A stretch of 64,000 nt of DNA from Blastocatellia bacterium (GTDB lineage: Bacteria; Acidobacteriota; Blastocatellia; UBA7656). The stretch is taken from NCBI GenBank assembly GCA_035575515.1, contig DATLXU010000136.1:14850-78849 (forward strand), in the 5' to 3' direction. Made by a program: the position numbers and the translations under genes. Below the pieces are notes generated by a model that was not told where the DNA came from, searched no databases, and was given only the letters and a program-made list of their open reading frames with translations. Positions 32,429 through 48,226 of this stretch are shown in pieces (the first letter of the stretch is position 1; every line of letters starts with the position of its first letter).

Positions 32429-33256
32429 CTAATTCTTTTCGCGATGGTCGACGGGTTTGTTCCCGTTCGGGTGCTCTTTATGCTTATTGGTTTCCTTGTC
32501 TGCTTCATTAGCGCCGCCTAGCGTCTCCCAGATGCCGCCGATTTCTTTGCCAACCTGATCGAAACTTGCCATTACCTCGTCGGTCTTCGTCGCGCCTTCG
32601 TCGTAAAGCTCAGAGGCTTTAGTTTGAGCCTGGCGAAAGATGCCTTTCACGGAGCCGTCATCTGAAAACCCCAAAAACAAAAATGCAACTGTCGCGCAGG
32701 CAAGCCCTGCGGCGGTGACAAGCCGCCAGCGCGGATTCTGAGACGGGCGCGGAAGCATCCTTGCAACAAGAGCCGTGACGCGGTCTCGAATGCGCATTCT
32801 CATTCGCGCTCGCTTTGGCATTATTGCGACGAGGCGATTAATTAAGCTGTCAGGCGCATCCACCTCTTCGTATGTGTGAACCGAATGGCAGGCGGCTATG
32901 GCATAGACGATTTCCGTGAGCAGGCTTGAACACGCTTCGCACTGCGCGGCATGTTCTTCAAAGCGATGATAGACCGGAGCCGGAACGAACCCGTCGAGAA
33001 ACTCAGTTATCAACTCTTCAAATCCGAAGCAATCAATCGGCGCGTGCTCTGATGGAATCATCAGTAGCGCGGCTTCGAGCATCGCGGGCGCTTCGATTTC
33101 ATCTTTGCAATCCGAGAGAGCCGACTTCAACTCATCGAGGAGCGCGCGGCATGCGCGGCACTGAAGCGCGTGCTCGCGAAAGAGGCTCGCGTCCGATGGC
33201 AGAAGCGCGTCGTCAAGGTAATCGCTCAGCTTATCCTCAAAAATACTGCAATCCAT
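32429..33256 (-). CDS. anti-sigma factor with two HxxxCxxC (zf-HC2-like) segments and one TM helix
   Basis: FREHALQCRACRALLDEL and FEEHAAQCEACSSLLTEI, then a TM helix and a short periplasmic tail. Confidence 0.7.
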   Translation of the reverse strand: MDCSIFEDKLSDYLDDALLPSDASLFREHALQCRACRALLDELKSALSDCKDEIEAPAMLEAALLMIPSEHAPIDCFGFEELITEFLDGFVPAPVYHRFEEHAAQCEACSSLLTEIVYAIAACHSVHTYEEVDAPDSLINRLVAIMPKRARMRMRIRDRVTALVARMLPRPSQNPRWRLVTAAGLACATVAFLFLGFSDDGSVKGIFRQAQTKASELYDEGATKTDEVMASFDQVGKEIGGIWETLGGANEADKETNKHKEHPNGNKPVDHREKN

Positions 33257-33426: not shown

Positions 33427-34014
33427 CTAATCGGGATTAACCTTCATCCTGCGCAGCACCTTGGCCAGTTCTATGCGGCCCCTGTTAATTCGACTCTTGA
33501 CGGTGCCTTCCGGTATCTTCAGAAGATTAACGATCTCCTGGTACGTCAATTCCTCTATATCGCGAAGAATGACGCACTCGCGCAGGTCTGGCGACAGCTT
33601 ATTAATCGCAGCAAGCACCTGGAGCCTTCTTTCCTGGCGTTCGAGCGTGCGTTGCGGGCTGTCGCTCGCAGACGGCAGGTGATACTCGTGATTGGCCAGG
33701 TCGTCGCCCGTGTCCGTAGGAGTCCGCTGCCGTTTGCGGTAATCATCAATAATCAGGTTGCGCGCAAGCCGCATCAACCAGTTCGATAGGTCGCCCAGGC
33801 TGGGATCGTACTGACCGAGCGAGCGATATACGCGAATGAAGACCTCCTGCGTCAGGTCTTCAGCCGCAGCATGGCTCGAAGTGAATCGGTAAGCGAGGTT
33901 GTAGATGCGGCGCGAGTACTGGCGCACGATCTCCGACCACGCCTGCTGGTCCCCCTCCAGACAACGCTGAACGATTTCAGCATCGTTTGATGTCAACGCA
34001 AGTCTTGCTCCCAC
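33427..34014 (-). CDS. ECF-family RNA polymerase sigma factor
   Basis: Region 2 (DLTQEVFIRVY) and region 4 HTH (LTYQEIVNLLKIPEGTVKSRINRGR). Confidence 0.85.
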   Translation of the reverse strand: MGARLALTSNDAEIVQRCLEGDQQAWSEIVRQYSRRIYNLAYRFTSSHAAAEDLTQEVFIRVYRSLGQYDPSLGDLSNWLMRLARNLIIDDYRKRQRTPTDTGDDLANHEYHLPSASDSPQRTLERQERRLQVLAAINKLSPDLRECVILRDIEELTYQEIVNLLKIPEGTVKSRINRGRIELAKVLRRMKVNPD

Positions 34015-41548: not shown

Positions 41549-43381
41549 ATGTCAACCAGACGAAAAAACAAACCGGCGCTTGAAGAACACGAAAAAGAAA
41601 AACAACGAGGCTCGCCGCGCGACCTGCTGAGACTTCTGGCTTACGCCCGCCCTTATCGTACCCGGCTCGCGCTTGCGCTTGTGAGCCTCATCATTGCAAG
41701 CGCGCTCGGACTTGCGTTCCCTCAAATTGTCCGGCTGTTGATTGATGCCTCATTCGTCGAGCGCGATGCGAGCAAGCTCAATCGCTATGCTGCATTCCTC
41801 ATCGGATTGTTCGCCTGCCAGGCGGCGTTCAGCTTCCTTCGCTCTTACCTGCTTTCCTATACCGGCGAGCGAATAGTGGCGGACGTGCGTACAGAGCTTT
41901 ATAGCCATCTCGTAAATCTTCCAATCGGATTTTATGCTAGTCGGCGCGTCGGGGAATTGACCTCGCGCCTTGCGTCTGACGTGAGTGTGATTCAAACGGT
42001 CACGACGGGCAGCATCACTGAGCTTCTACGACTGACCCTAATTCTAACGGGCGGCATCGCAATCATTGCAGTCACAAATCCGCGACTGACACTTCTGATG
42101 CTCGCAGTCGTTCCGGTCGTGATCCTCTCAGCAACATTTTATGGTCGCTATATTCGCCGCTTGAGCACTCGGGTTCAGGACAAACTTGCTGACGCGAACT
42201 CCGTGCTTGAAGAGGCGCTTTCCGCGATTCGCATAGTCCAATCCTTCGTCCGCGAAGACTACGAGCGCAAGCGTTACGGCGAGCGCATTCTTGAATCTCT
42301 TAGGATGGCCGTCAAACGCTCAGTCGCGGGCGCGGGCTTCATCGGCTTCATCATTCTTGTAGTCTATAGCGGCATCGTCGTAGTGCTGTGGTTCGGCAGC
42401 CGAATGGTTTTGTCGGGCGCGATGACCGCAGGCGAGTTGATTGCCTTCGTGCTCTACACGTTCGTCGTGAGCGGCGCAATAGGCGGAATGAGCGAACTCT
42501 ACGGACAATTTCAAAGCGCGATTGGAGCTACGCGCCGCGTATTTGAATTGCTCGATACCGAACCTGAAATCAAAGACCCCGAAAGTCCTCAGCCGCTTGA
42601 AACAGTCGCTGGCCGCGTCGAATTGATTGACGTGCATTTCACCTACCCGGACGAGCGCGGCGTCGAGGTTTTAAGAGGCGTGACGATACGGGCCGAGCCG
42701 GGAGAGATAATCGCGCTCGTTGGACCGAGCGGCGCGGGCAAATCAACGCTGGTCGCCCTAATCCCGCGCTTTTATGATGTCACGCGGGGCGCGATTTTGG
42801 TCGACGGCCACGACATAAGAACTGTCCGGCTTAAAGACCTCAGGCAATCCATCGGAATGGTGCCACAGGAAACTACGCTGTTCGGCGGGACTATCAGAGA
42901 GAATATCGCTTACGGAAACCTCGATGCGACTGACGACGAAATCGAAGCGGTAGCGCGAGCCGCGCATGCTCACGAATTCATAAAAGAATTTCCCGACGGC
43001 TATAACACTATAGTTGGCGAGCGCGGCGTGAAGCTGTCGGGCGGGCAGCGCCAGCGAATTGCAATCGCTCGCGCGCTCCTCAAAAATCCCGCAATATTGA
43101 TTCTCGATGAAGCGACAAGCTCGCTTGATTCGGAATCAGAGCGGCTCGTTCAGGATGCGCTCGAAACTTTAATGCGAGGCCGCACGACTTTCGTCATCGC
43201 TCACCGTCTTTCAACCGTTCGCCGCGCAGACAGAATCGTCGTGCTTGATGGCGGTTGTGTGATTGAAGAAGGCACGCACGAAGGACTGATTGCGAGAGGG
43301 GGATTGTATAAACAGCTTTACGAGATTCAATTTAGAGATTATCCGGCTTCGCCTATGACGAATATCTTAGACGTTGGCTGA
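41549..43381 (+). CDS. ABC transporter ATP-binding/permease protein (MsbA-like exporter)
   Basis: 6-TM exporter domain; Walker A GPSGAGKST, signature LSGGQRQRIAIARAL, Walker B ILILDEATS. Confidence 0.9.
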   Translation: MSTRRKNKPALEEHEKEKQRGSPRDLLRLLAYARPYRTRLALALVSLIIASALGLAFPQIVRLLIDASFVERDASKLNRYAAFLIGLFACQAAFSFLRSYLLSYTGERIVADVRTELYSHLVNLPIGFYASRRVGELTSRLASDVSVIQTVTTGSITELLRLTLILTGGIAIIAVTNPRLTLLMLAVVPVVILSATFYGRYIRRLSTRVQDKLADANSVLEEALSAIRIVQSFVREDYERKRYGERILESLRMAVKRSVAGAGFIGFIILVVYSGIVVVLWFGSRMVLSGAMTAGELIAFVLYTFVVSGAIGGMSELYGQFQSAIGATRRVFELLDTEPEIKDPESPQPLETVAGRVELIDVHFTYPDERGVEVLRGVTIRAEPGEIIALVGPSGAGKSTLVALIPRFYDVTRGAILVDGHDIRTVRLKDLRQSIGMVPQETTLFGGTIRENIAYGNLDATDDEIEAVARAAHAHEFIKEFPDGYNTIVGERGVKLSGGQRQRIAIARALLKNPAILILDEATSSLDSESERLVQDALETLMRGRTTFVIAHRLSTVRRADRIVVLDGGCVIEEGTHEGLIARGGLYKQLYEIQFRDYPASPMTNILDVG

Positions 43382-44157
43382 GGCGAGCCGCCTTCAGGCT
43401 CAAGCGTGATTGCCGCAAAGACAGGTTTGATGTTATTCGAGGGACCGGGAACTACGGCGACGACGCGGCCCGACTCGCTGGCCTTCATAGTGCCCGCGCT
43501 TATCTTCGCATCTTGGGTGACGAACCAAAGCTGATAAACCTTTCCGGCAGGAAGCGGAGGCAAATCCGCGTTGACTATCCAGCGGTTCGTCTGCACATCC
43601 CATAAGATTTCGCCCGATGCTTGTGGCGCACCTTCCTGCCCCGCCAGCTTTATCACGCGAGGCTGCGCTGCGGCGACGGTTGTCGAGGTTTGCGCTGCTT
43701 CTTCTTTGCTCTTATCAAGCGCGGCCTGAAGCGCGCGGCGGTCCGATTGCCACAGAAATACGCTCACGATAAAAGCAACAAATATTGAGGCCGCAATGGC
43801 CCAGGGGATGAATGCGCGCGCGGGCGCTGGTCGAGATGGTATTTGTCTTGTTAGGGTCGGGTGTTCAGGGAATCGCAGCACGTCGGCCTGTTGACCGATT
43901 ATTTGCGGCGATGTTTTAGCTTCGTTCGCAATGTTATTGATGAGCCGTTCGCGCAAGTTGGCAGGAGGCGACACGGGCGGCGCGGTCGAGCCAATTAATC
44001 CAACGACCTGCTCGAATTGATTGACTTCGATTTCACAAGCGGGACAGCCGTCGCGCAGGTGGCGCTCGAAGGCGCGAGCCTCGTGTTGAGAGAGCGCGCC
44101 CAGGACATATAGCGCGGCGGCCTCCTGGCTCTCCTCGTTTACTTCATCATGCCTCAA
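43339..44157 (-). CDS. anti-sigma factor, RskA-like (N-terminal Cys/His anti-sigma domain, TM helix, RskA-type periplasmic domain)
   Basis: ALYVLGALSQHEARAFERHLRDGCPAC at the N-terminus, then a TM helix, then a C-terminal domain beginning VYQLWFVTQDAKISAGTMK. Confidence 0.75.
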   Translation of the reverse strand: MRHDEVNEESQEAAALYVLGALSQHEARAFERHLRDGCPACEIEVNQFEQVVGLIGSTAPPVSPPANLRERLINNIANEAKTSPQIIGQQADVLRFPEHPTLTRQIPSRPAPARAFIPWAIAASIFVAFIVSVFLWQSDRRALQAALDKSKEEAAQTSTTVAAAQPRVIKLAGQEGAPQASGEILWDVQTNRWIVNADLPPLPAGKVYQLWFVTQDAKISAGTMKASESGRVVAVVPGPSNNIKPVFAAITLEPEGGSPQPTSKIFVIGEAG

Positions 44158-44184
44158 TTCGGTGTGCCCTTCCTGCCTGCAAAT

Positions 44185-44793
44185 TCAGCGAGCTTCCAGA
44201 ACTTCGTAACGCTCCGGCGCTATCAACAAGAACAACGTCCCCTCAACCGTGTATGTCTCATCGTGAATGCTCCCCGCCGCCGCTCGGTGATAACCGCCCG
44301 GTCCGAGCCTCTCGCCGCAAACGTTGCAATCGCCTTCGAGAATATAAAACTGCTCGACTCCCGTATGGCGATGACGGGGCAGCCTCGCCCCCGGCTTCAT
44401 TCTCACAAGCGAAGTCGCAAGCCCGCTCTGCTTGTCCACAAACAGCAACTTGAACGAAACGCCTTCGCAAGCCTGCACCCACTGGCCTCCGTCTGCGTGA
44501 ATCGAAACGAACTCATCTGAGCTTGCCTGCCCATCAACTGACTGCGCGCTTGCCTCTTCAACATTAATTCTAGATAGCAGATCATCGCGCACCTTCAGAG
44601 ACGGCTTTGCTTCTACGGTTTCGTAGGAGAGCGCCTCAAGCGTCATCTCGAACGACTCAAGCTCTTCTCTACAAGCGTCGCAACCTTCGGCCAGATGCTC
44701 TTCAAACGTTTTCGCTTCATGCTGAGAGAGCGCGCCAAGCGCGTATAGCGCCGCCATCTCGGTCATCTCATCGGTCATTGCGAGATGCTTCAT
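44185..44793 (-). CDS. anti-sigma factor, ChrR-like (N-terminal anti-sigma domain plus C-terminal cupin)
   Basis: ALYALGALSQHEAKTFEEHLAEGCDAC at the N-terminus. The cupin-like C-terminus has HRHTGVEQFYILEGD. Confidence 0.75.
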   Translation of the reverse strand: MKHLAMTDEMTEMAALYALGALSQHEAKTFEEHLAEGCDACREELESFEMTLEALSYETVEAKPSLKVRDDLLSRINVEEASAQSVDGQASSDEFVSIHADGGQWVQACEGVSFKLLFVDKQSGLATSLVRMKPGARLPRHRHTGVEQFYILEGDCNVCGERLGPGGYHRAAAGSIHDETYTVEGTLFLLIAPERYEVLEAR

Positions 44794-45386
44794 AACTGAC
44801 CCTCCATGACGGGACGAAGCATCTCGCGCAGCTTTATCATTCCAAGCCGCGTGCGCGTCTTCACGGTGCCGAGCGGCTGACCCAGCTTCAGCGCAATTTC
44901 GCTGTGGCTGAGACCGCCGTAGTAGGCAAGCTCGATGACCTCGCGCTGTTCGGGCGACAACTGATCGAGCGCCGCCCGCACCAATCGCTGCCGCTCGGAA
45001 TAGACCGTAGCATCTTCCGGGCTGATCGAAGAGCTGCTCACTTCAGCAATGTTGTCAAGCGATTCTTTATTCTGCTCGTGCTTGCCTGCACGGAGCCTGT
45101 CAATTGCGCGGCTGCGCGCAATCGTCAGCAGCCAGGCGAGCGGCGCGCCTCGCTTCAAATCGTAAGTCGCGGCCTGCCGCCACACCTGCGTGTAAACGTC
45201 CAGCAGCACCTCTTCGGCGATTGACCGGTCGCTGACGATGCGCAGAATCAATCCGAACACCAGGCGACTGCTCGTGTCATAGAGCGCCGTCAGGGCAGAC
45301 TGATCCCCGTCGGCGACCTTTTCAATGAGCGCAATCAGATCGTGATCGCGCGTGCGAGGTGCTATTGAGTCTTGGGGTGATCCCAA
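44790..45386 (-). CDS. ECF-family RNA polymerase sigma factor
   Basis: Region 2 (EEVLLDVYTQVWRQA) and region 4 (LSHSEIALKLGQPLGTVKTR). Its stop overlaps the start of the downstream anti-sigma gene. Confidence 0.85.
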   Translation of the reverse strand: MGSPQDSIAPRTRDHDLIALIEKVADGDQSALTALYDTSSRLVFGLILRIVSDRSIAEEVLLDVYTQVWRQAATYDLKRGAPLAWLLTIARSRAIDRLRAGKHEQNKESLDNIAEVSSSSISPEDATVYSERQRLVRAALDQLSPEQREVIELAYYGGLSHSEIALKLGQPLGTVKTRTRLGMIKLREMLRPVMEGQL

Positions 45387-45979
45387 CCTTGTCTCTCCGT
45401 TTACCCGTTTGATTCTACGCCATCCCGCCTGCCGTCGGATTTACCGAGCGGCGCGAATAAATCGCGGCTTCTGGCAATTGCAACATTGCGGGAAGGTGAT
45501 AATACAACAAGAGCCTCGTCCCGCTAAAGTAAAATTTCTCGCCTCCGGCAAGACGCTGCTTATCGGCGTTTGCGGCTTTTCTTCATTGGCATTGTGATTG
45601 ATCATTGAGATTTGCAGTCAGTGTTTCACTAATCACCGTTTCAACTTCAACAGGCTCGTTAGAGAGCTTCGCCGATGTGCAGTTGACCAGTGGAGATTTG
45701 CCTGACCCGCAAAGCGCAAGCATGTAGTTTTAGTCCCCACCCAAGCAATTGGTGGAATGCTTTGATCATCGAAATAGTGGATCGTTTTGGCAGCACGTTT
45801 TTTTTTCTACCCCATCAAGGTAGCAATTCCGGCAATACAAAACCATAAGGTTCAATGGCATATCAATTGACTTGCGCAAGATGATGCTCTGGTTACTTTG
45901 CTATTCATAGAGGCTCAGAATCGGGATGCGCGAGACATGCAGTTTGACTCATATCTTTAACGGGCGAGCAGGAGGACTT

Positions 45980-48226
45980 ATGAGGAATAGAAGAGTTGTC
46001 ATGGGAATAATAGTGCTGTTGATCTTTGTTATGAATCTGAGCGTTGTGCAGTTTACTCCCCAGTCCACAGCCAGCGGTCAATTCAGTAGAATAGATGCAC
46101 AGTGGGATTTTGATGGCGACGACTTCGATCCGAGAGCGGCCAAGTTGCCCCGCGACCTGCGCGCGATGATTGATGCAAACCGTGGCAAGGACGCTGATCA
46201 GGTCCAGAATGTCATCGTGCAATCCGCAGGCACTCTGCTGGGCGATAGAGCAAGATCGGTCCAACAGCACGGCGGTTCTGTCAAACACTACTTCAAGAAC
46301 ATCAACGCCATGCTTGTAGAAATTCCTATAGCGCGTATCGAAGAGCTTGCATCTGAAGGCGACATCGAATTCATCACGCCAGACAGGGAAGTCATCTGTG
46401 CGATGGACGCCACAACCAAGTTGATAGGCGCAGATCAGTTGTTGCAACCCGGCGCAAGCACCTACGGCGGCCTTTACCCGGCAGTTGATGGAAGCGACGT
46501 TGCGGTTGCGGTCCTCGATTCCGGCATTGATTTGAATAATCCCGATTTCTATACATCGAAACAAACGAGCCGCGTGGTTGCCTTCAAAGATTTCGCTGGC
46601 GATTCGAAAGGCAAGATTCAAAAGGGCGCGTATGACGATTACGGGCATGGCACGCCTGTGGCTGGCGTGATTGCAGGCTCTGGCTCGGCTTCGCAGATGC
46701 GCGACAAAAAAGGCACGGAGTGGTATCCGGGCAATTATGGCGATTTCACAGGCGTTGCCCCTAATGCAAAGATAGTCTCGCTGAAAGTCATAGACGCGAA
46801 CGGCACTGGAAAAATCAGCAACGTCATTCAGGCGCTCGATTACGTCGTTGCAAACAAATCACGCTACAACATACGGGTCGTCAACCTTAGCCTCAGCGCG
46901 CCAGTGATGCAGAGCTACAAGATTGATCCACTTTGTCAGGCGGCAGAACGCTGCGTTGACAGCGGAATCGCAGTGGTCTGCTCTGCCGGAAATTTCGGCC
47001 ACAACGATGTCATCACTGCTTATGACAAAGACGGCAAGCCAATTTATCAAACCGTCTATGGCGGCATAGGCAGCCCTGCAAACGATCCGAAAGTCATCAC
47101 CGTTGGAGCAACTAAAGACCCTGCGCAATCGGTCCTGAGCTGGCCCGACAGCACAACTCCGCCGACCATTGATCCAAGTCCCGCTCCGTTGCGCCGCACC
47201 GATTTGCAGGTTGCCTCATACAGCTCGCGTGGCCCGACGCTCGTTGATGGAATCATCAAGCCCGATCTGGTCGCGCCGGGAACGAAAATCATAACAACAG
47301 CATCAAGAGAAGGGACGCTCACAGAGTTGACTTTGCCCAATGCGATTGTGCCGCCTTCATCCTCGTCGGCGACAACAAAGGTTTACTGTCAACTGACGGG
47401 CACGTCGCTATCGGCTCCGGTTGTGTCGGGCATCGCAGCCTTGATGATTCAGGCCAATCCAAAAATTTCGCCTCGGATGATAAAAGCGATTTTAAGGATG
47501 ACCTCAGAGCGATTGCCCTCGCTCGCTTCGGCGAGCGCGATAGAGAGAGTGCTGACGGAAGGAGCCGGGCTTGTGAACGCCCGGGCGGCTGTTCGGTTGG
47601 CTCAGAACCTGCGAGCGGATGTTGATGCTGCGCAGGCAGGTCAAAGCCTGCTTCGTCAGGGCGTGACGCTCGGCGGGTTGAGCCGTGACCTGACTTTGTT
47701 GATTAAGGACCAGAGCGGCAATGTTGTTGATCGCGGAGTCTTCAACAGCGGATTCCTCCTGGCAGACGGTTTCCTGCTCGCTGATGGTTTTCTTTTGGCA
47801 GACGGGTTTTTGCTGGCAGATGGTTTCCTGCTCGCAGATGGATTCCTGTTAGCCGACGATTTCCTTCTTGCTGATTCAACTGTTTGGCCCGACGGATTCC
47901 TGCTTGCCGACAGTTATGTTCAGACTAGCTGCCTGCAAAGCGTAAGCGGGTCGCTCGTGGCAAATGAATTGCCAATATCAAGAGCCGTTCGCGCCCGCAG
48001 CTTCTACGCCGACGGCATAGTCGCGTCAACCGGAAACGCGCATGGAAGGATGATCTTTTCGCATGAGTCTATGGTCTTGTGGGGAAACGCAGTGCTCGAC
48101 CCGAATTCTGTTTCCCTGTCCGCGCAGTCGGTCAATTCCGGCGCGCTAACATTGGATGACAATGCTCCGATAAGCGGCTTGCGATTCATCACAATCAACA
48201 GCCCCTTTTATCCGAAGCAACGATAA
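45980..48226 (+). CDS. secreted subtilisin-like (S8) serine protease with C-terminal GFLLAD hexapeptide repeat region
   Basis: An AGGAGGA RBS precedes the ATG at 45980, with a signal peptide. Catalytic residues are Asp (AVLDSGID), His (HGTPVAG) and Ser (GTSLSAPVVSG). GFLLAD x6, DFLLAD and GFLLAD repeats lie at nt 47749-47909. Confidence 0.85.
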   Translation: MRNRRVVMGIIVLLIFVMNLSVVQFTPQSTASGQFSRIDAQWDFDGDDFDPRAAKLPRDLRAMIDANRGKDADQVQNVIVQSAGTLLGDRARSVQQHGGSVKHYFKNINAMLVEIPIARIEELASEGDIEFITPDREVICAMDATTKLIGADQLLQPGASTYGGLYPAVDGSDVAVAVLDSGIDLNNPDFYTSKQTSRVVAFKDFAGDSKGKIQKGAYDDYGHGTPVAGVIAGSGSASQMRDKKGTEWYPGNYGDFTGVAPNAKIVSLKVIDANGTGKISNVIQALDYVVANKSRYNIRVVNLSLSAPVMQSYKIDPLCQAAERCVDSGIAVVCSAGNFGHNDVITAYDKDGKPIYQTVYGGIGSPANDPKVITVGATKDPAQSVLSWPDSTTPPTIDPSPAPLRRTDLQVASYSSRGPTLVDGIIKPDLVAPGTKIITTASREGTLTELTLPNAIVPPSSSSATTKVYCQLTGTSLSAPVVSGIAALMIQANPKISPRMIKAILRMTSERLPSLASASAIERVLTEGAGLVNARAAVRLAQNLRADVDAAQAGQSLLRQGVTLGGLSRDLTLLIKDQSGNVVDRGVFNSGFLLADGFLLADGFLLADGFLLADGFLLADGFLLADDFLLADSTVWPDGFLLADSYVQTSCLQSVSGSLVANELPISRAVRARSFYADGIVASTGNAHGRMIFSHESMVLWGNAVLDPNSVSLSAQSVNSGALTLDDNAPISGLRFITINSPFYPKQR

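Follow-up and report, generated by a model that had tools for sequence, protein, structure and literature searches.

One ECF sigma gene followed by two paralogous candidate anti-sigma genes, for a soluble cupin protein and a membrane RskA-like protein, in a predicted operon of Blastocatellia

Extracytoplasmic function (ECF) sigma factors and their anti-sigma factors are usually treated as one-sensor, one-output modules, in physiology as well as in their use as orthogonal synthetic-biology parts. The analyses presented here concern a 64-kb stretch of DNA (the whole of which we call the window) from a Blastocatellia bacterium, a soil acidobacterium, in which an ECF sigma gene is followed on the minus strand by the genes for two proteins that begin with related anti-sigma domains (ASDs), the first a soluble cupin protein resembling ChrR and the second an RskA-like protein predicted to cross the membrane once. 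All the component families are known; what appears new is the arrangement, one ECF sigma with two candidate class I anti-sigma paralogues in one operon, of which no description was found in the searchable literature, including the supplement of the ECF classification.

In the R. sphaeroides sigmaE–ChrR system (ECF11), a soluble protein encoded directly after the sigma gene joins a zinc-type ASD to a cupin with an H-x-H-x3-E...H site, as the cupin protein of the window does, and the promoter type (xxATC...CGTA) is similar. ChrR is, however, only about 20% identical to our cupin protein and has H-x3-C-x2-C where the latter has H-x4-C-x2-C, and the window's sigma is nearer to SigK than to RpoE. 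The zinc ligands of the ChrR ASD are reportedly H6, H31, C35 and C38 (H-x3-C-x2-C), and ChrR operons are not known to encode a second, membrane-bound ASD protein. M. tuberculosis SigK–RskA (ECF19) provides the nearest solved sigma and an anti-sigma that is likewise a single-pass protein with an RskA_C ectodomain, and helix 1 here also has the hydrophobic 'YAL' type of contact that is known from ECF17–19 (PMC7406223); unlike SigK and ECF18/19 sigmas (PMC7826278), the window's sigma has no sigma4 cysteine pair, and the RskA-like gene, usually at position +1 in the ECF19 group, is found at +2, behind the cupin anti-sigma gene. In subgroup ECF19s19 (e.g. Tolypothrix PCC 7601) of the classification by Casas-Pastor et al. 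(2019/2021), position +1 after the ECF19 sigma gene is taken, as in the window, by the gene for a soluble cupin anti-sigma of the ChrR-like kind, but the three cyanobacterial loci of this subgroup that we inspected (L073-L075) are dyads without an RskA-like gene, and their ASDs have no H/C/C motif. The same classification assigns RskA-like anti-sigmas to ECF19, ECF18 and ECF214, and mentions one anti-sigma per ECF19 subgroup. M. tuberculosis SigL–RslA resembles our locus in having a membrane anti-sigma with a zinc/redox-sensitive H...C-x2-C ASD, and differs in its canonical H-x3-C-x2-C spacing, its ectodomain and its single anti-sigma per sigma. In function, the system that comes nearest is that of S. 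meliloti RpoE2, one ECF sigma with two paralogous anti-sigmas, RsiA1 and RsiA2 (PMC8103513; also PMC4814048, PMC9303464); but these are small NepR-type proteins of identical architecture that act by PhyR partner switching, and the RsiA1 gene lies at another locus (PMC8103513), whereas the window has a single operon for two class I ASDs, each fused to a different predicted sensor in a different compartment.

The initial annotation of the window had placed three open reading frames (ORFs) at 45386-44790, 44793-44185 and 44157-43339, with overlapping or tight junctions on one strand; all three are present on the minus strand at exactly these coordinates, and a 4-nt overlap and a 27-nt gap join them into one apparent transcription unit. 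Its features, including a predicted transmembrane (TM) helix and with structural evidence from AlphaFold2 (AF2) models and their predicted local distance difference test (pLDDT) scores, are as follows.

45416-45441, minus strand: predicted autoregulatory ECF-type promoter (AATCC-N17-CGTA, positional conservation)
44790-45386, minus strand: ECF (group IV) sigma, 198 aa, TTG start (Pfam, NCBIfam and PDB matches)
44185-44793, minus strand: soluble cupin anti-sigma, 202 aa, ATG start (Cupin_7, AF2, Foldseek)
44524-44793, minus strand: anti-sigma domain of the cupin protein, residues 1-90 (invariant H33/C38/C41, helices)
44221-44505, minus strand: cupin (ChrR cupin-like) domain, residues 97-191 (Pfam Cupin_7, invariant columns)
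43339-44157, minus strand: membrane RskA-like anti-sigma, 272 aa, TTG start (RskA_C, NF052375, AF2)
43888-44157, minus strand: anti-sigma domain of the RskA-like protein, residues 1-90 (invariant H3/H33/C38/C41)
43753-43809, minus strand: predicted TM helix, residues 117-135, IPWAIAASIFVAFIVSVFL (Kyte–Doolittle, AF2)
43348-43656, minus strand: extracytoplasmic RskA_C beta-sandwich, residues 168-270 (Pfam RskA_C, pLDDT)

The stop codon of the sigma gene and the ATG of the cupin gene overlap by 4 nt as ATGA, which suggests translational coupling of the cupin gene to the sigma gene, and the 27-nt gap before the RskA-like gene contains a ribosome-binding site (AGGAAGG) followed by a TTG start. Neither a terminator nor a sigma70-like promoter was found between the three genes, which fits a single transcript.

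The first gene encodes an ECF (group IV) sigma-70 factor of about 200 aa with sigma2 and sigma4 domains only (Pfam Sigma70_r2, 1e-12, and Sigma70_r4_2, 2e-15, both above threshold; NCBIfam TIGR02937, 85 bits against a cut-off of 42.9). By its nearest matches it appears SigK/ECF19-like: the top NCBIfam model is the SigK subfamily NF007228 (7.8e-54, although at 182 bits the score lies under the cut-off of 226), among PDB entries M. tuberculosis SigK (4NQW, 1.3e-35) scores best, ahead of R. sphaeroides RpoE (2Q1Z, 6e-24), and an ECF19s19 member is 41% identical. SigK and the R. sphaeroides RpoE, its nearest solved relatives, both partner class I ASDs. Since the sigma contains no cysteine, it has no sigma4 disulfide of the SigK/ECF18/19 type (PMC7826278); the cysteine pair, reported for ECF19 s1, s2, s6, s11 and s13, is a subgroup-specific and not a universal feature.

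The two downstream genes had been described as encoding one soluble cupin protein and one single-pass membrane RskA_C anti-sigma, with which both the Pfam domains and the hydrophobicity profiles agree. The cupin protein carries Cupin_7 ('ChrR cupin-like') at residues 97-191 (3.2e-22, above threshold) and no hydrophobic segment (Kyte–Doolittle maximum 0.89). Its AF2 model (pLDDT 68.7) has four N-terminal helices (3-18, 24-35, 39-58 and 66-80, at moderate pLDDT), a disordered linker and a beta-barrel, and the PDB structure that Foldseek ranks first for this model is SigE-bound ChrR (2Q1Z_B, E 1.2e-10, 186 columns), which the cupin-family profile also matches across both domains (4e-6). In this profile alignment ChrR H31/C35/C38 fall on H33/C38/C41 of the cupin protein with a one-residue gap, and H141/H143/E147 on the ChrR segment 'PDHGHRGLE'. 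Among 23 homologues H33, C38, C41, H141, H143, E147, H177 and C156 are invariant, together with H3 or H8; H141, H143, E147 and H177 make up the cupin metal-ligand pattern H-x-H-x3-E...H. The label 'ChrR-like' given in the initial annotation thus stands for the architecture but not for orthology: with scores far under the ChrR cut-offs (TIGR02451, 33 bits against 124.5; NF051881, 38.2 against 300), the protein is, judged by profile, ChrR-like and not a ChrR orthologue. In the window's sub-lineage C159 accompanies the invariant C156, forming a C-x2-C at residues 156-159 (within EGDCNVCGE) inside the cupin barrel that could be an extra redox or metal site.

The RskA-like protein has an RskA_C domain (PF10099, 2.1e-19, 70.6 bits against a cut-off of 29.4) and passes the NCBIfam equivalog NF052375 'anti-sigma factor' (141.8 bits against 100). 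It has one strongly hydrophobic segment, residues 117-135 (19-residue Kyte–Doolittle maximum 2.42), and its AF2 model (pLDDT 75.5) consists of ASD helices (8-35, 39-58 and 66-82, at moderate pLDDT), a TM helix that begins at residue 117 and, over residues 168-270, a beta-sandwich (pLDDT about 85-92). Much of the ectodomain is invariant, including W186, W193, an LPP-x-P-x-GKVYQLW block and an LEPEGGS-x-QPT block. A ligand for RskA_C was sought through structural matches, which were weak Greek-key hits (Cu/Zn-SOD-like, E about 5e-3, TM-score 0.26-0.6) that we take as a generic beta-sandwich likeness, and because of their weakness a ligand cannot be inferred from them. The window's protein is also without a juxtamembrane outer segment of ~25-30 residues (near residues 145-165) that most homologues have; this segment looks coiled-coil-like (alignment columns about 208-232), and one homologue (P0346) has the same deletion.

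In particular, the ASDs of the two proteins are strongly similar. The 27-residue N-terminal strings that had been quoted as near-identical are correct, with 20 of 27 positions identical, and the pairwise alignment of the two domains that the initial annotation had proposed is gapless over residues 1-89, with 39% identity (BLASTP, E 2e-20). This similarity is far beyond chance and marks the proteins, as predicted from their sequences, as paralogous in this region. Both N-termini are predicted to have the class I ASD fold, a three-helix bundle with a fourth helix. The motifs are HLAEGCDAC in the cupin protein, where H3, H33, C38 and C41 are present, and HLRDGCPAC in the RskA-like protein, where the same four residues are invariant in 25 homologues; the zinc-type anti-sigma domain that had been proposed is therefore borne out as a motif in both proteins, but as H-x4-C-x2-C and not as the canonical zinc-binding anti-sigma (ZAS) H-x3-C-x2-C. 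The best PDB sequence match of both ASDs is M. tuberculosis RslA (3HUG_B), whose motif HLAGCPEC is one residue shorter.

Both ASD families have in common, within helices 1-3, the stretch AALYALGAL and residues E26, A27, F30, H33, L34, G37, C38, C41 and E44, and a column-by-column comparison of the two families found no position fixed to different residues in each paralogue, as would be expected if both dock on the same sigma. In class I complexes helix 1 points toward sigma4 and helix 4 toward sigma2 (PMC7406223). Considering that helix 1 is conserved in both paralogues, both keep the sigma4-facing surface; strong conservation of helix 4 (Y67, R69, D70, L72, R75, I76, E79) is confined to the RskA-like paralogue, so that the sigma2-facing helix is under tighter constraint in the membrane protein.

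The history of the pair was approached through distances and trees. Distances among RskA-like ASDs (0.417) are smaller than those among cupin-protein ASDs (0.537), and in neighbour-joining trees the RskA-like copies form one clade inside the cupin-protein copies, with RskA-like monophyly in 18 of 60 bootstrap replicates of this 84-column domain. This fits a single ASD duplication, basal to one Blastocatellia clade, with fusion of the ASD to a TM–RskA_C module or the opposite course of events; the bootstrap support is weak, and either direction may apply. Gene conversion between the paralogues was considered and rejected: cupin/RskA-like identity is 46.1% within the same genome and 45.0% across genomes, which points to an old duplication without ongoing conversion, and the longest nucleotide run common to both paralogues in the window is 14 nt. 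In one triad (L058, 4001-5508), both ASDs are without the C-x2-C cysteines (cupin protein 'QIVAEGDRLSEQE', RskA-like protein 'HSQQQ---ATTE'), a joint loss that hints at a common zinc or redox role.

The arrangement recurs well beyond the window. We scanned one genome per species with an alignment of the cupin protein as query and scored the loci with the window's domains; the 62 loci obtained are nearly all from Blastocatellia or other Acidobacteriota. The full triad (sigma, cupin-ASD protein, RskA-like protein) occurs in 30 species-representative Blastocatellia/Acidobacteriota genomes, also in metagenome contigs reached from divergent cupin homologues, and in three of three contigs reached independently from RskA-like homologues, and in 33 of 33 triads the RskA-like gene lies directly downstream of the sigma–cupin pair. 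The exact cupin protein is annotated in Blastocatellia metagenome-assembled genomes (MAGs), locus L001 being from GCA_037024415.1. A dyad of sigma and cupin-ASD genes only was found in about 20 genomes, and a sister acidobacterial clade has this dyad form. When the neighbours of the triads were compared, none accompanied all triads: an ABC exporter (11 loci), a metallophosphoesterase (11) and a Rad52-like protein (15) recur within sub-lineages only, and with flanks this variable only the three genes travel together. In the window the 3' end of the RskA-like gene overlaps a convergent ABC exporter gene (41549-43381) by 43 nt (43339-43381), and this same convergent ABC gene was found in 11 triad loci.

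Across twelve sister pairs the ratio of non-synonymous to synonymous substitution rates (dN/dS) ranges over 0.04-0.12 (sigma gene), 0.09-0.26 (cupin gene) and 0.08-0.32 (RskA-like gene), well below 1 in all three, which indicates purifying selection and that neither anti-sigma gene is decaying. The second gene had been judged intact and no degraded pseudogene, and both the intact ORFs and the selection on both anti-sigma genes support this. Two of the triads (L015, 4661-5528; L028, 4597-5527) have the RskA-like coding sequence broken into a pair of overlapping ORFs; these are 'MFD' long-read, nanopore-derived MAGs, and the splits are probably sequencing frameshifts and not pseudogenes.

Several further observations concern the scanned loci. 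The H/C/C motif is lost in the main dyad clade as it is in the cyanobacterial ECF19s19 ASDs; in this clade (L035, L039, L041-L048, L050, L052-L057) it is replaced by non-ligand residues, e.g. 'ENLLAENRAGLADEL', the sigma and cupin genes do not overlap, and a different conserved block, TTTATTTCTG ... TATAAGATC, lies upstream. In an unclassified MAG (L061, 1412-2984) the sigma gene is followed by a 75-aa ASD-only ORF and then by the gene for a cupin-ASD protein, directly after which the contig ends; the ASD-only ORF may be another type of doubled anti-sigma, or a remnant. Records L014, L017, L038, L042, L043, L045, L047, L050 and L056-L058 are titled 'uncultured Clostridia' or 'Heliomicrobium', but their modules are 47-58% identical to the Blastocatellia versions and group with them, and the labels of these co-assembly MAGs look wrong. 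The module is also present in a MAG assigned to Chloracidobacterium (L036), and cultured relatives may therefore carry it.

Upstream of the sigma gene, rAATCC-N16-17-CGTA(G/A) is found at the same distance, about 25-30 nt before the sigma start, in all 33 triad loci, and AATCC...CGTA also in many dyad loci. The window's copy (45441-45416, minus strand) lies 30 nt upstream of the start, with AATCC (45441-45437) as the −35-like and CGTA(GA) (45419-45416) as the −10-like element. It resembles the −35/−10 type of ECF11/18/19, for which the Casas-Pastor supplement gives motifs of the xxATC...CGTA type. Placed in front of the sigma gene, the motif implies autoregulation as a predicted feature of the module. 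A strict search for AATCC-N15-17-CGTA found one copy in the 64-kb window, the one before the sigma gene, where 0.81 are expected by chance, so that a single copy is at chance level and the significance of the motif comes only from its positional conservation.

Taken together, we consider it reasonably probable (about 60%) that both proteins are functional class I anti-sigma factors of this SigK/ECF19-like sigma and that they respond to distinct inputs. The cupin protein, soluble and ChrR-like with a metal-binding cupin, would hold the sigma in the cytosol, and the RskA-like protein, single-pass with its RskA_C domain outside the cytoplasmic membrane, would hold it at the membrane. The ChrR/SigE and RskA/SigK structures are 1:1 complexes in which the class I ASD lies between the sigma2 and sigma4 domains (PMC7406223), from which it follows that the two inhibitors would be mutually exclusive and compete for the sigma; the sigma pool would thereby be split between cytosol and membrane. 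If it behaves like ChrR, for whose relatives the ECF11 description and the name of NF051881 give singlet oxygen, organic peroxide, cadmium and UV as signals, the cupin protein might be inactivated by an oxidative or metal-related signal in the cytoplasm. If it behaves like RskA, for which the ECF classification supplement states regulated proteolysis, the RskA-like protein might be inactivated by an extracytoplasmic cue, probably through such proteolysis, and the H-x4-C-x2-C site may add thiol or zinc sensitivity to both. Once free, the sigma would act at the AATCC-N16-17-CGTA promoter, and all three proteins would be produced anew.

The output would depend on the ratio of inhibitors to sigma: with the inhibitors in excess, both cues would be needed for full induction (AND-like), and with inhibitors approximately stoichiometric with the sigma, each cue would free its own share (additive or OR-like). 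A strict two-input gate, in which mutually exclusive ASD paralogues from one duplication permit full release only on cytoplasmic plus extracytoplasmic cues, is a tentative proposal that we consider less likely than not.

Several points weigh against the view that both proteins inhibit this sigma. Members of the sister dyad clade and of cyanobacterial ECF19s19 get by with a cupin anti-sigma only, and the basic switch can therefore do without a second inhibitor. The spacing from H to C is one residue above the canonical ZAS motif and zinc binding is putative. Matches of both ASDs to RskA_N and zf-HC2 are sub-threshold (cupin protein, residues 11-42, RskA_N, PF22618, 21.9 bits; RskA-like protein, residues 9-41, RskA_N 17.3 bits; cut-off 27), and the cupin protein scores far below the ChrR models, as given above. 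With its less conserved helix 4, the cupin paralogue may bind the sigma more weakly or differently. Finally, a search by motif for regulon members beyond the operon found none in the 64-kb window.

It could be, though we think it rather unlikely, that there is one working anti-sigma, most likely the RskA-like protein, and that the other acts as a modulator, either a weak buffer capturing newly made sigma or a co-anti-sigma or anti-anti-sigma working through binding of the other protein's ASD or its zinc site. The smaller distances among RskA-like ASDs and the conservation of Y67/R69/D70/R75/I76/E79 of helix 4 in that paralogue only would agree with such a division of labour, and translational coupling of the cupin gene to the sigma gene would suit buffering. 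Considering, on the other side, that the cupin protein is the sole adjacent candidate anti-sigma in the dyads and in cyanobacteria, its lineage is presumably that of a competent inhibitor; moreover, the helix 1-3 surface and the candidate ligands are equally conserved in both paralogues, and the dN/dS of the cupin gene is 0.09-0.26.

Improbable, in our judgement, is that the two proteins are redundant inhibitors answering the same cue (thiol oxidation or zinc loss at H-x4-C-x2-C), with the C-terminal domains mainly setting location or stability. Redox-sensitive ZAS anti-sigmas are known, e.g. RslA (PMC2877774), the candidate ligands are conserved in both families, and the loss of cysteines from both paralogues of L058 hints at a common constraint; that loss is a single case, however, and the invariant cupin metal ligands and RskA_C residues argue for a working sensor at the C-terminus of each protein.

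The RskA-like protein might also act on a sigma encoded elsewhere and be a passenger in this operon, since ECF sigmas are numerous in acidobacteria and the window itself has another, 11 kb away. We hold this to be very unlikely, given that its gene stands directly behind the sigma–cupin pair in every triad and in all three reverse look-ups, that no ASD is more closely related to that of the cupin protein than its own, with the sigma4-facing helix 1 in common, and that the only other ECF sigma of the window has its own adjacent zf-HC2 anti-sigma. That one of the anti-sigma genes is a decaying duplicate without function, for which the split genes of L015 and L028 might be cited, is refuted for practical purposes by the selection analysis, both genes being intact in the window and the splits occurring in nanopore-derived MAGs, where frameshift errors (our explanation of these cases) are common.

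Elsewhere in the window, behind the gene for the second ECF sigma (33427-34014, minus strand, 195 aa) comes one for a protein of 275 aa (32429-33256, minus strand) with two zf-HC2 stretches, REHALQCRAC and EEHAAQCEAC, both H-x3-C-x2-C, and then a hydrophobic segment; this would be a tandem ASD duplication in one polypeptide, and thus a second, different doubling of ASDs in the same genome. Divergent from the sigma operon lies a subtilase gene (45926-48226, plus strand; Peptidase_S8, 2.9e-50) whose product has about eight tandem 'DGFLLA' hexapeptides near the C-terminus and which is not conserved beside the triad in other loci.

Finally, the second anti-sigma gene at +2, which goes unmentioned in the ECF19 and ECF19s19 descriptions that could be read, may point to a gap in those descriptions, and three small genes with a known promoter motif make a compact, testable system. 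If the strict two-input gate is real, it would be the first case on record in which two ASD paralogues of one operon place an ECF sigma under compartment-integrating control. A sigma paired with two class I anti-sigma paralogues that carry different sensors would show that signal integration can evolve at the level of the anti-sigma factor, by duplicating the binding domain and fusing it to a new sensor.

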